NCBI RefSeq assembly: GCF_013167455.1
Contig: NZ_CP038328.1
Direction: 5' to 3' (one strand)
Length of the DNA: 64,000 bases
Source: Escherichia coli O157:H7
GTDB taxonomy: Bacteria; Pseudomonadota; Gammaproteobacteria; Enterobacterales; Enterobacteriaceae
Every line of letters starts with the position of its first letter. The stretch's first letter is position 1. Below are positions 42,001-48,000 of the stretch, piece after piece. Position numbers: made by a program.

Positions 42001-45000
42001 TATCAGCTGTGAGGTAACGTTCCGGCACGGGACGCTCCGCTTCAATGGCAATGTCAGCGAAAAGCTCCTGACTCTGCTGATACAGGAACTGAAGCGATGA
42101 TCCCGTTACCTTCCGGGACCAAAATTTGGCTGGTTGCCGGTATCACCGATATGAGAAATGGCTTCAACGGCCTGGCTGCGAAAGTACAAACGGCGCTGAA
42201 AGACGATCCCATGTCCGGCCATGTTTTCATTTTCCGGGGCCGCAGCGGCAGTCAGGTTAAACTGCTGTGGTCCACCGGTGACGGACTGTGCCTCCTGACC
42301 AAACGGCTGGAGCGTGGGCGCTTCGCCTGGCCGTCAGCCCGTGATGGCAAAGTGTTCCTTACGCAGGCGCAGCTGGCGATGCTGCTGGAAGGTATCGACT
42401 GGCGACAGCCTAAGCGGCTGCTGACCTCCCTGACCATGCTGTAAATCTCTTTATCCTGGTTGTCACAGAATAAGCCCGGTAAAATACGGGCTTATGAACG
42501 ACATCTCTTCTGACGACATCTTCCTGCTGAAACAGCGCCTGGCCGAACAGGAAGCGCTGATCCACGCCCTGCAGGAAAAGCTGAGCAACCGGGAGCGCGA
42601 AATAGACCATCTGCAGGCGCAGCTGGATAAACTCCGCCGGATGAACTTCGGCAGTCGTTCCGAAAAAGTCTCCCGCCGTATCGCACAAATGGAAGCCGAT
42701 CTGAACCGGCTTCAGAAAGAGAGCGATACGCTGACTGGTAGGGTGTATGACCCGGCAGTACAGCGTCCGTTGCGTCAGACCCGCACCCGTAAGCCGTTCC
42801 CTGAATCACTACCCCGTGACGAAAAGCGACTGTTGCCTGCGGCGCCGTGCTGCCCGAACTGCGGCGGTTCACTGAGCTATCTGGGCGAGGATACCGCCGA
42901 ACAGCTGGAGTTGATGCGTAGCGCCTTCCGGGTTATCCGGACGGTACGGGAAAAACATGCCTGTACTCAGTGCGATGCCATCGTGCAGGCACCTGCACCT
43001 TCGCGGCCCATCGAGCGGGGTATCGCCGGACCGGGGCTGCTGGCCCGCGTGCTGACCTCGAAGTATGCAGAGCACACCCCGCTGTATCGCCAGTCAGAAA
43101 TATACGGCCGGCAAGGTGTGGAGCTGAGGCGTTCACTGCTGTCGGGCTGGGTGGATGCATGCTGCCGGCTGCTGTCTCCGCTGGAAGAGGCGCTTCATGG
43201 CTATGTCATGACTGACGGCAAACTCCATGCCGATGATACCCCGGTCCAGGTACTGCTGCCGGGTAATAAGAAGACGAAGACCGGGCGGTTGTGGGCGTAT
43301 GTTCGTGATGACCGCAATGCAGGGTCAGCGTTGGCACCTGCAGTGTGGTTCGCTTACAGCCCGGACAGAAAAGGCATCCATCCGCAGACTCATCTTGCCT
43401 GCTTCAGCGGTGTGCTGCAAGCGGATGCGTACGCCGGGTTCAACGAGCTGTATCGCAATGGTGGGATAACGGAAGCTGCCTGCTGGGCTCATGCCCGCCG
43501 AAAGATCCACGATGTGCACGTCCGCATCCCGTCAGCACTGACGGAAGAAGCCCTGGAGCAGATCGGTCAGTTGTACGCCATAGAGGCGGATATAAGGGGA
43601 ATGCCGGCAGAGCAGCGGCTTGCTGAACGTCAGCGAAAAACGAAACCGTTGTTGAAATCCCTGGAAAGCTGGTTGCGTGAAAAGATGAAGACCCTGTCGC
43701 GACACTCAGAGTTGGCGAAGGCGTTCGCGTACGCACTTAACCAGTGGCCGGCACTGACGTACTATGCGAACGATGGCTGGGTGGAAATCGACAACAACAT
43801 CGCTGAAAATGCCCTGCGGGCGGTCAGTCTGGGTCGTAAAAACTTCCTGTTCTTCGGCTCTGATCATGGTGGTGAGCGGGGAGCGCTACTGTACAGCCTG
43901 ATCGGGACGTGCAAACTGAATGACGTGGATCCAGAAAGCTACCTTCGCCATGTGCTTGGCGTCATAGCAGACTGGCCGGTCAACCGGGTCAGCGAACTGC
44001 TTCCGTGGCGCATAGCACTGCCAGCTGAATAACACATCCCCGTCAATACGGCCCTCGCTGTACGCTTACGCGTAATCGGGGCAGACGCTATTACAAAGCT
44101 GTTGATGCTAATAACCGAGCCAACAGAATGGCGAAAAGGCCAAAACCGTGCTTACTGGATCAAAATTTACCATTGCGAAAGCTTGTTCTGGAAAAGCTGG
44201 AGATGAAATGGTCTCCAGAGCAAATATCAGGATGGTTAAGGCGAACAAAACCACGTCAAAAAACGCTGCGAATATCACCTGAGACAATTTATAAAACGCT
44301 GTACTTTCGTAGCCTGATTACCACTATAAAAAGGCTGCTATTGAGTATGTTGCTCAGATGCTCATATCAAATATCGGTAATCTTGAGGAATACACATTTG
44401 TTCCCGTACCACCATCCAAATGCCGTACAGATGCCGCTTACGATGACCGTATGACAGAAATTCTGCGAATTGCGCAAACCTACGAACCATGGCTGGATTT
44501 CTGGGAACTGGTTGTGCAAAACGTATCAACAATAGCCTCTCATACCGCAACAAACCGGCCCTTACCAGAAGCGATTATGGCAAACTACCAACTGGATGAA
44601 CAATTACTGGAAGGGTGCAGGCCCTAGATTGTTATTTTTGATGACGTTCTCACTGCCGGTAGTCATTTTAAAGCGATGAAAAGCCTGATACTACAACATA
44701 TTCCTGAAGCCTGTATACTGGGACTCTTTGTTGCCCGAACAACCCGGGGAGCTCAAATTATTTAAAAAGGGTAAAGTACTCCTTAAAATTAAATCACTGA
44801 TTCATCGCCGTCAGCTATAATCCTGTACCCCATCGCTTTATAACCCCGCTGACGTTTATCCCACATTCTGAGCAGCACAGGATACGCGGTATCCACAAAA
44901 TCAATGATCCTGACATCGCTTTTACCGGTATGCTCTCTGTGAAGACGCCCTGCATACTGCTGTAATGTCCCTTTCCATGACACAGGCATGGCAAGAATCA

Positions 45001-48000
45001 GCGTATCCAGCGGAGGGTGGTCAAATCCCTCACCAATAAGTCTGCCTGTTGACAACAAAATTCGAGGAGAATCGGGAGGAAGAGCATTCAGCCCGGATAT
45101 CAGCATCGCACGCTTTTTTTTCGATAGTCGACCATGGAGAATAAAGGGAGACAATTTCAGTGAATTCATCACTGATGCTATCTCATCCAGATGATCTGTA
45201 CGTTCAGTCAGTACCAGAACTTTTCGCCCCTGCCCGAAAGCTTTCATGGCTTCTTCAGCTATCGCCACCGTTCTGTCATGATCCAGAGCAATTTCTCTGA
45301 AAATATCCTGGATTCTCGCATCCGATGGTAAATGACCAGATGTAAAACGGGAACGGATCAGTACCTCCAGATTATGTGGGCTTTCCTTCGGGCGGACCGC
45401 TGTATGGCGAATGGCACCACAGTACATAAAAATAATGGGATGCAGACCATCCCGTCGGATTGGTGTTGCCGTCAGGCCAAGCAGATATCTGGCATTCGTT
45501 TCCTTCAGAATCGCAGAAAATGAAACCGCGCCAATATGATGGCACTCATCCACAATGATTTGCCCATAATTCCTGACCAGAGGTTCAACTTCTCCTTGTC
45601 TGGATATGGACTGCACCACCGCAATATCAATATTGCCACAGGGTTTATGTTTACCTCCCCCGATAATACCAATACTGTCACCGGCCTGCAGAAACACCGC
45701 GAGACGCTCCTGCCACTGCTTCAGCAATTCAGTCCGGTGTACCAGTATCAGTGTATTCACTTTCCGCTTGGCAATCACTGCCGCTGCGGTAACTGTCTTA
45801 CCAAAAGCCGTTGGCGCACAAAGCACACCAGTGTCATAACGGAGTAATGCCGAAACGGCCTCTTCCTGCTCCGCTCTGAGGTTTCCCATAAAAACGGCAT
45901 TACATTCCGTCCCGGCAAATCGTTTATCGATTAATTCTGCAGCAATATTGTTGTCCCTAAGGAAAGATAATACGCTGTCCAGACATCCCCGGGGCAACGC
46001 AATGTGTTGCGGGTAATTCTCCGCACAACCTATAACACGGGGCTTATTCCAGACTGACATACGCATTGCCTGAGCCTTATAAAACTCAGGGTTCGGAAAT
46101 GCTGCCAGCCGAATAAGTCGGTTAATCAGCACCTGAGGTAATTGCGCTTTTTCGAAATAGATCTGGTTTGCCAGCGTGATTTTCAGCGGTTCTGCAATAG
46201 AAATATTCAGTCTGTTTCCTGATGATTTTTTCTCTTCCCACGGCGTACCCAGGTCTTCTTCGTTGATAAAATTCACATCCAGAGGATGGATACTCCCTGT
46301 AGCCCGTAATATCGTCGGTTCAATATCCTGCACATTCATCGGGGTCACCGATACAAGAAAAGCCCACTGATCAGGATAAGGCTGGAGATTCATATCAACA
46401 AAAACGCTTCCCCCCAATTCACGCGGTCTTTTTTGCAGAGGTAACGCTATGAGATTACCAAATCCCCCTTTTGGCATAGTATCCTGATTAGGAAATAATC
46501 GGTCATAAGACCCCAATCGCAGCTGTCGGGTCCGACTACACGTATAGCTAATAATAGCAGTCCCCAGACGGCGAGCTTCGCGGGCCGAAACTCGTGAGGC
46601 AAAAAATATCCAGACATGCGCCCCCTGACGTGAACGGGATATTTCCAGCGCAGCAGGTACACCCAGCTCATCACAGGATCGCATGAATGCGGATGCATCC
46701 TTCTGCCATTCAGCTTCATCAAAATCAACTGCCAGAAAATAACAGGAATCATCTTCCAGCAACGGATACATCCCGACAGTATGGGTACCGGCCAGATGGT
46801 GGTAGATGACGAGATCGGATACAGGAATCAACTGACGGTGAGCGCAGTCCCCACATTTTATCCGGGGTTTACCGCATATTCTCGCCTGCCATTCGTTAGC
46901 GCAGGCAGGAGAGTACCCTGATTTGCCGCTGGTTTTACTTTCCCATCTAAGTGCCCATACATCATCACGCCCACGAAACAACCGACGAAATAATGCAACC
47001 TTCTCGTCGGTGGATAATACAGAAACGCGCTGCACAGGAGTCTGCGGTTTACGTCGCCATTCAATCCCATGAGCTTCAAGTAATGAGACCAGACGGGCAT
47101 TTTCTGCCCTCAATGCAGCTAATTCATCACTGTCAGATTTATGAACCATATTCGTTACCTGTATCCGATCCACTGAGGCACCACGGCAGAAATTCGGGTC
47201 CCCTACACTGATGACAAAGCGCCCCGCCCTCTTCTGCCTATTAACTCAAGCACCTCCCAACAACTTACAGAAACTTAATTCTAATACCTAATACAGCTGT
47301 AATTCAGTTATGTCGTGGTCGGCCCCGGTTACTTTTTTCGGGAAGCCTGCTACGCCTCAGAATAATACCGTGTTCTTTCTGATCCTGTTTGGCCAGATAG
47401 CTAAGGGCGTAACGTAAGTCGTCTACCGCAGATTTATCACTATAGTGAATTACGTGATCGATACGCACCGGGTATTTGTCTTTAGCCCTGCACAGGTGAA
47501 AATAACCCTCCCCTTCCGTGATCCGCCTCCAGATATCTCCCAGTTGCCTGGATATCCGATAAGATTTGTTGTGACGTTGCCCATCCAGGTAGCCGATAAA
47601 ATGAATATGAAGTCCCTTGTTTGACGTATATTCCATTACCCAGTAATATCCCGCCAGCATCGTTTGGGTTTCACTAAGTAAGCGGTGCATTTCAATACAC
47701 ATACTGTGCCTACAGGAATGACCAAAACTGGGCGTGTCTTTCCTGTAGGCAAAATCAATTCTGAAAGGTAACAGTTTAGAAAAACGTTGAAACAGACCTT
47801 CCATGTGTTCATTCACGTCTTTCAGAATCATGAAGTCCATTTCGTAATTGGGATTAGCATTATACATTTTATAGTCCTTACTTTATAAAAGTTACAGGAA
47901 GGTGGAATTACATAAATACTGAGAGTACAGAAACGCCGTACCGCGGCATTAATAAACGAGGTAACCAGCAGCACAGACAACCTGATAAAACTGTTTCGTA

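Follow-up and report, generated by a model that had tools for sequence, protein, structure and literature searches.

The insertion sequence (IS) excision enhancer, IEE, of Escherichia coli O157:H7 is a 786-residue protein in which a Z1568-like archaeo-eukaryotic primase (AEP) domain (residues 1-290) is followed by a superfamily 2 (SF2) helicase-like domain (residues 291-786) (PMC9943667). Its gene, iee (locus ECs1305), has been placed in the island SpLE1 (PMC9397093; bioRxiv 10.1101/2023.06.07.543989, Chandler review), and the residues of both active sites have been assigned. Specifically, K451 and R735 are ATPase residues (PMC9943667, Calvo et al. 2023), and D142, D144, H178 and D216 make up the polymerase site (bioRxiv 10.1101/2023.06.07.543989). 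Here we describe a 64,000-nucleotide stretch of E. coli O157:H7 DNA (assembly GCF_013167455.1, contig NZ_CP038328.1; hereafter the window), in which the gene at 44789-47149 on the minus strand is almost certainly this same iee, with neighbours that are independent of its function.

Deletion of iee abolishes the precise excision of IS629 and IS600, and a plasmid carrying the gene restores it (PMC9397093). Such a plasmid, whose insert may hold more than iee, also suffices for IS excision in E. coli K-12 (PMC9397093). In two sources (bioRxiv 10.1101/2023.06.07.543989; PMC9397093), IEE is described as greatly raising the removal of IS3-family (IS629, IS600), IS1-family and IS30-family elements, either precisely or with flanking deletions, and as needing an active cognate transposase to do so. 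The same sources list IS5, IS26 and IS621 as unresponsive and the low basal excision of IS4 as unaffected. The purified protein is a Mn2+-dependent, error-prone polymerase that permits primer/template dislocation and joins 3′ single-strand overhangs sharing at least 4 bp, a reaction that requires both domains (PMC9943667). Its SF2 module at the C-terminus hydrolyses ATP in a DNA-dependent manner without unwinding duplexes, and is needed for stable DNA binding, the synapsis of two ends, and strand displacement (PMC9943667).

Two models have been put forward to account for these activities. In the model of Calvo and colleagues, IEE would, while the transposase acts on a copy-out-paste-in IS, bridge the ends of the broken donor at its target-site duplication and fill them in. 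In the model of Chandler, IEE would cause a template switch in the copy-out replication step. Under either model alike, the IS would be lost. The enzyme matters because it drives IS loss and deletions in the most pathogenic lineages of Shiga toxin-producing E. coli, and because it is a rare bacterial example of a microhomology end-joining enzyme.

The gene in the window agrees with published iee in every respect that we could compare. The sequence from 44000 to 48600 has 100% identical counterparts in many E. coli O157:H7 chromosomes (megablast). The annotation of the identical locus in strain FORC_044 puts the window inside a large ter-ure-iha integrative element, at the end of which a tyrosine integrase adjoins ycdU. 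This island is of the SpLE1 type, also known as O-island 43/48 (OI-43/48) of E. coli O157:H7. The raw open reading frame (ORF) has 794 codons and begins with a GTG at 47173 (44789-47173, minus strand). The initial annotation accordingly described a protein of 794 residues, which is correct for the ORF, but the published start, shared by the RefSeq protein (WP_000233452), is the ATG at 47149, eight codons further in, and yields 786 residues plus the stop codon. When numbered from this ATG, all six published catalytic residues (D142, D144, H178, D216, K451 and R735) fall at their published positions. Similarly, the four arms of the iee knock-out primers (PMC9397093, Table 2) match exactly at 44714-44769 on the plus strand and at 47147-47204 on the minus strand; they bracket precisely this ORF, with the ATG at 47149 forming the end of one of them. 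We therefore name the gene iee on the combined strength of the identical locus, the type of island, the domains described below, the length of 786 residues, the catalytic residues, and the primer arms. The locus had at first been regarded as encoding a poorly characterised architecture. In fact, iee has been known since 2011 and its biochemistry was worked out in 2023, with both genetics and biochemistry published (PMC9943667; PMC9397093; bioRxiv 10.1101/2023.06.07.543989), such that the present gene is a rediscovery rather than a new one.

An N-terminal AEP primase-polymerase and a complete C-terminal SF2 helicase motif set had been proposed from the sequence, and profile searches bear out both, with Pfam scores for the two halves that are far beyond chance. 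In the N-terminal half, the family AEP-TOTE (PF22548) matches residues 57-285 of the 794-residue ORF with E=2.4e-98, covering model positions 1-228 of 230, and DNA_primase_S matches at 1.1e-7. The AEP domain thus spans residues 49-277 of the 786-residue protein (46319-47005, minus strand), and includes the metal ligands D142, D144 and D216 and the nucleotide-binding H178. Among structures in the PDB, this half matches the CRISPR-associated PrimPol of Marinitoga (7NQD, 7NQE and 7NQF; phmmer 6.7e-8 over residues 113-272), and the best PADLOC match of IEE is likewise a CRISPR-associated PrimPol profile (PDLC01465, 2.5e-147). The RefSeq name is 'TOTE conflict system archaeo-eukaryotic primase domain-containing protein', where TOTE denotes TPR, OB, TBP and Effector (Aravind, Iyer and Burroughs 2022, as cited in PMC12458937). 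In the C-terminal half, Pfam finds ResIII (7e-24), DEAD (2.4e-10) and Helicase_C (1.5e-7). The SF2 helicase-like ATPase core lies at 44936-45883 on the minus strand, with ResIII at residues 423-565 and Helicase_C at residues 639-738, and it contains the Walker A lysine K451, a DECH box at residues 534-537, and the arginine finger R735. In the PDB, this half matches XPB/Rad25 and RadD (3e-20 to 9e-13). NCBIfam models for RadD and XPB also match IEE, all of them below their curated cut-offs and none above.

Relatives of IEE were collected from 1.84 billion 50%-cluster representatives at a threshold of E<=1e-30, which returned 3,322 proteins. The best 150 of these are nearly all full-length AEP-helicase fusions of 36-62% identity, and half of the distant homologues exceed 900 residues. 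In an alignment of 117 family representatives, AEP-TOTE and ResIII are present in every member, the six catalytic residues are conserved in 112 to 117 sequences, and K451, D534, E535 and R735 are invariant. A C-x8-C-x6-C-x2-C cluster (C83, C92, C99 and C102; 46844-46903), situated towards the N-terminus of the AEP domain and kept in about 86% of the 117, could be a zinc site. The terms 'Zn-finger' and 'zinc' in PMC9943667 concern other PrimPols only, and the cysteine cluster goes unmentioned in the IEE papers examined. A PLD-like nuclease domain (PLDc_2) is added at the C-terminus in 21-30 of the 117 representatives, DUF559 in two or three, and a restriction-endonuclease-like domain in one. 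To judge from its domains, this nuclease-fused architecture suggests a defence effector that targets nucleic acids.

The genomic surroundings of such relatives were inspected at 10 distinct loci outside E. coli (13 fetched), which hold homologues of 43-62% identity and several of which are short metagenomic contigs. At most of these loci, the homologue stands alone, surrounded by toxin-antitoxin pairs of the PIN, CcdAB, Fic and SocA kinds or by variable genes of other sorts. At one locus (L010, 1235-6504), a homologue of 56% identity forms an apparent operon with genes for a 434-residue protein (no Pfam match) and a 527-residue TPR protein, and the end of the latter gene overlaps the start of the IEE-like gene. 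None of the other nine loci has a TOTE-like context. At another (L022), a 587-codon gene overlaps the homologue from upstream. The TPR protein, when used in tblastn searches of the 13 fetched loci, matches only itself. Searches with the products of the genes that flank iee in E. coli (tblastn with the Gp2-like protein, ShosT and ShosA, all described below) find no such gene at any of the 10 distinct loci, with the limit that a divergent Gp2-like gene could escape BLAST. At the locus of the 62%-identity homologue (L005), BLASTP finds no similarity between the products of the small upstream genes and the Gp2-like protein.

In several O157 strains, a full IS629/IS1203 copy lies within iee and separates the AEP half from the helicase half (NZ_CP022050.2, 2290-5963). 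In those strains, the IS has knocked out its own excision enhancer. Comparable IS insertions into iee have been described in O121:H19 (PMC9397093).

The convergent neighbour of iee, whose stop codon is 23 bp away, is the remnant of a Shosta phosphoribosyltransferase (PRTase) toxin gene, shosT (44313-44765, plus strand; codons 59-208 of 208). An 89-codon ORF at 44358-44627 matches the PADLOC ShosT profile at 9e-15 over profile positions 91-164 of 237, which agrees with the initial annotation of this gene as convergent and PRTase-like; NCBIfam has no match for the ShosT fragment. As that annotation had also anticipated, an intact homologous locus reveals the full gene. In E. coli M9, a DprA-like gene (PADLOC ShosA, 4e-103) overlaps by 4 bp a 208-codon PRTase gene (ShosT, 2.2e-50), and this pair is convergent with iee. 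The M9 ShosA protein matches the solved ShosA structure 9vzo at 4.7e-21 (phmmer against the PDB). M9 ShosT has no phmmer match in the PDB, being too divergent for the solved ShosT.

Homology between the window and M9 shosT begins at 44313, which is codon 59, and extends as far as the stop codon at 97% identity. The loss of the 5′ half of the gene to IS30, as originally proposed, is right with regard to truncation at the IS30 fragment, which abuts codon 59, but the lost portion is 58 of 208 codons (28%) together with the whole upstream shosA gene, which is absent from the window. The supposed frameshift is not there: the alignment has no gaps in 488 bases, and the only lesion is an in-frame change of TGG to TAG at 44625-44627, after which the phosphoribosyl pyrophosphate-binding loop motif IVIFDDVLTAG follows in the same frame. 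With shosA and 58 codons of shosT gone and an amber stop in the rest, the Shosta system in the window must, on this reading of the genes, be dead. A toxin gene deprived of its antitoxin would be expected to decay in this way. Shosta DNA is partly present in 687 of 5,426 complete E. coli genomes, with at least 80% of it in only 38 and with at least three different truncation points; an intact shosA-shosT pair beside iee likewise occurs in 38 of the 5,426. A junction between IS30 and shosT made by IEE through microhomology was considered as well and was dropped, the only possible overlap being 2 bp (44311-44314), which is too little.

On the other side of iee, 154 bp upstream, is a gene for a 187-residue YagK/YfjJ-like protein (47304-47867, minus strand). 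RefSeq calls it either 'inovirus-type Gp2 protein' or 'YagK/YfjJ domain-containing protein', in agreement with the YagK-like partner of the initial annotation. Its profile matches are weak (Pfam REP_ORF2-G2P 8e-4 and YagK_YfjJ_C 0.033), PHROG 7120 matches at 2.3e-7, NCBIfam contains nothing at E<=0.01, and an H-I-H motif is visible in the sequence. This Gp2-like gene reaches at least 80% coverage in 1,692 complete E. coli genomes, and full-length iee is present in 683. It is intact, with IS debris directly after it, in the islands of strains O18, LR-46 and Z0117EC0117, and about 1,000 further complete genomes hold only a 5′ stub of iee beside it. In a pap/iuc island, the stub amounts to some 70 codons. 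In strain SCU-308 (NZ_CP053281.1, 422-7333), the start of iee is retained (equivalent to 46799-47149 of the window) and the remainder is replaced by a type I Mokosh defence system (MkoA E=0, MkoB 1.9e-151). Because the Gp2-like gene is intact where iee has been lost, stubbed or replaced, it is maintained independently of iee as a gene of the island backbone. The slot that follows it behaves as a recurrent position for defence cargo (AbpAB and RnlAB in K-12, Mokosh, and Shosta), and in this family of islands iee and Shosta occupy that variable slot.

These observations bear on the proposal that the PRTase-like, primase-polymerase/helicase and YagK-like genes once made up a single multi-gene system against phages, part of which has since been inactivated. 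The three genes do travel together in E. coli, where the genomes with Shosta remnants and those with full-length iee are nearly equal in number (687 and 683), and the block of homology shared with a different island (L003) begins at the shosT remnant and reaches about 500 bp past the Gp2-like gene. The slot is also one that receives defence cargo, AbpAB/RnlAB in K-12 and Mokosh in SCU-308, and the names given to the AEP domain by Pfam and NCBI assign it to a 'conflict system'. However, ShosA and ShosT constitute a complete, self-contained two-gene toxin-antitoxin defence system of their own (PMC11961720; PMC9122126), transcribed convergently to iee. Moreover, Shosta is destroyed while iee is intact in about 95% of the iee-positive genomes, the Gp2-like gene persists without iee, none of the ten loci outside E. 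coli carries a Gp2-like or Shosta gene, and an iee plasmid alone gives a phenotype in K-12 (PMC9397093). A single former system is thus highly improbable; iee, the Shosta remnant and the Gp2-like gene are three separate units. A still fainter prospect is that IEE is the primase-helicase replication protein of the integrative element, with the HUH-like Gp2 protein as its initiator nickase. Fusions of an AEP with a helicase typically serve as replicases in plasmids and integrated elements (PMC5862659), the Gp2-like neighbour resembles rolling-circle Rep/G2P proteins in its REP_ORF2-G2P match and H-I-H motif, and IEE itself has PHROG matches to phage helicase and primase families. But the helicase half is of the SF2 type, like XPB and RadD, and not of the SF3 or DnaB type used in replicative fusions, and purified IEE has no DNA-unwinding activity (PMC9943667). 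Among 50,697 phage records there is no full-length homologue, the helicase half alone matching at less than 30% identity. The settings of the homologues (toxin-antitoxin-rich chromosomal spots, a TPR operon, or fusion to a PLD nuclease domain) include none that resembles a replication module, and the island carries a P4-alpha-like remnant of its own (YfjI/DUF3987; PHROG 2373, 2.5e-57). IEE therefore does not have the makings of a routine phage replication protein, and we assign this idea almost no weight.

A different question is whether IS excision is a side effect of a protein whose selected role is immunity against phages, plasmids and transposons, IEE being a stripped-down relative of TOTE systems. 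Consistent with this idea are the presence of AEP-TOTE in all 117 representatives, of which 21-30 add a PLD nuclease domain and a few DUF559 or a restriction endonuclease domain; the operon that joins the 56%-identity homologue to a TPR gene, an arrangement like that of TOTE systems; the CRISPR-associated PrimPol profile as the best PADLOC match; the toxin-antitoxin and defence genes that adjoin the homologues; and the position of E. coli iee in a defence-cargo slot beside Shosta. On the other hand, the searchable literature holds no phage-defence phenotype of IEE, for or against, and E. coli IEE has neither a nuclease domain nor a TPR, OB or TBP partner. The idea is also compatible with the identification as an IS excision enhancer rather than exclusive of it, for the removal of IS copies is itself an activity against mobile elements. 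Overall, we regard an immune role as unlikely, if worth bearing in mind. Its fullest form, in which IEE would descend from TOTE-type conflict systems as a minimal protein that works alone, was selected for immunity and shows IS excision as one visible outcome, is more doubtful again; it is put forward because of the location in a defence slot beside Shosta, the PLD-fused and TPR-partnered relatives in other phyla, and the conserved four-cysteine cluster. A weaker extension would have the HUH-like Gp2 protein supply the nicks on which IEE acts. What our analysis adds to the published picture is the identity of the decayed neighbour as a Shosta remnant, the place of iee in a defence-cargo slot, and the nuclease fusions in about a quarter of distant homologues, and together these make the question of an immune role for IEE concrete.

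Several points weigh against the identification of the window gene as an autonomous IS excision enhancer. All E. coli iee loci that were inspected also hold the Gp2-like gene and a Shosta remnant, and for this reason linkage within the species cannot separate an ancestral module from a set of functional partners. The sample from other species comprises only ten loci, several of them short metagenomic contigs, and divergent Gp2-like genes could have been missed there. The complementing iee plasmids may have carried upstream sequence. The IS-excision activity of the window gene is taken from the literature on the same gene, which offers both end joining and template switching as its route in vivo.

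Downstream of iee, beyond the shosT remnant, the sequence from 41333 to 44312 is nested IS debris. A complete ISEc8 of the IS66 family, comprising tnpA and tnpB (41699-42444) and the transposase gene (42494-44032, plus strand), as evident from the ORF list and the RefSeq annotation of the identical locus, splits the remnant of an IS30 transposase gene. An internal fragment of the latter (44071-44312, plus strand; NCBIfam transpos_IS30, 2.7e-6), labelled by RefSeq as a pseudogene, 'IS30 family transposase, missing N- and C-terminus', is fused straight to shosT codon 59. Its 3′ break meets shosT inside the IS and not at an IS end. Strain ETEC1747 has the same IS30-shosT junction with a longer piece of IS30 and no ISEc8, which shows the state that preceded the ISEc8 insertion.

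Upstream of iee, the RefSeq annotation of the identical locus gives the gene order integrase, HTH, DUF3987, YfjI and Gp2-like, and then iee. The genes within about 5 kb of iee are IS elements, the shosT remnant, the Gp2-like gene, YfjI, DUF3987 and HTH genes. The YfjI-family gene (48688-50091, minus strand), whose PHROG 2373 match carries the label 'DNA helicase', is preceded by a short DUF3987 fragment (50249-50490, minus strand), and the pair looks like a decayed P4-alpha-like primase/helicase of the element's own backbone. A scan of 44300-48700 for promoters and terminators was uninformative: promoter-like sites were fewer than in shuffled sequences, and nothing in the gap that separates the Gp2-like gene from iee convincingly resembles a terminator. 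Farther along the island, a 605-codon ORF (52124-53941, plus strand) lies in a patch of 31-33% G+C between an IS1 remnant and the island integrase; it is kept in related islands as a 'hypothetical protein' and has no match in PADLOC or PHROGs.

The island backbone resembles that of the cryptic prophage CP4-57 of K-12, in which the order intA-alpA-yfjI-yfjJ is followed by the anti-phage genes abpAB (yfjKL) and rnlAB. The description of the locus as a CP4-57-like module is thus upheld by backbone synteny: the Gp2-like gene follows YfjI just as yfjJ does in K-12, a variable cargo slot comes after the YfjJ-like gene in both elements, and the two YfjI proteins are 40% identical. The elements differ in that the match between K-12 YfjJ and the Gp2-like protein extends over no more than 18 residues (E=0.003), and in that abpBA is convergent to yfjJ in K-12 whereas iee is co-directional with the Gp2-like gene in the window. 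The parallel once drawn between IEE and the helicase YfjK is one of position, since YfjK/AbpB has no detectable similarity to IEE at E<=0.01. With respect to Shosta, the decayed neighbour is a ShosT-type PRTase whose orthologous locus in M9 has both ShosA and ShosT, but the window has no shosA and its shosT has lost codons 1-58 and acquired an in-frame stop, such that it is a homologous member of this family and not a functional one.

As for IEE itself, it resembles TOTE systems in that its AEP domain matches AEP-TOTE almost end to end, as the RefSeq name reflects, and in that the homologue of 56% identity is found in an operon with a TPR gene. It differs from them in that no gene of the TPR, OB-fold/CSD or TBP kind (by the definition in PMC12458937) lies within about 5 kb of iee in the window and in that Pfam finds no nuclease or other effector domain in the E. 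coli protein. With the CRISPR-associated PrimPol of Marinitoga sp. 1137 it shares a homologous AEP core, but there is no CRISPR-cas locus near iee, and the fusion partner in IEE is an SF2 ATPase. Compared with replicative primase-helicases of the pRN1 ORF904 or P4 alpha type, IEE has no SF3 or DnaB-type helicase and showed no unwinding in published assays. The polymerases of bacterial non-homologous end joining (LigD PolDom and PrimPolC) are similar to IEE in function, as error-prone enzymes that join ends at short homologies (PMC9943667). IEE differs from these in having no ligase or phosphoesterase domain, in belonging to another AEP clade (Prim-Pol/Z1568-like), and in acting in vivo in a manner that depends on transposase. 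By analogy, eukaryotic Pol theta is an end-joining polymerase that is likewise coupled to a helicase-like ATPase. The best counterpart by far is IEE of O157:H7 Sakai (ECs1305; Z1568-like AEP family), which the window gene equals in length, domain order, catalytic residues and island, and from which it shows no difference of substance, the raw ORF being merely eight codons longer through its upstream GTG.

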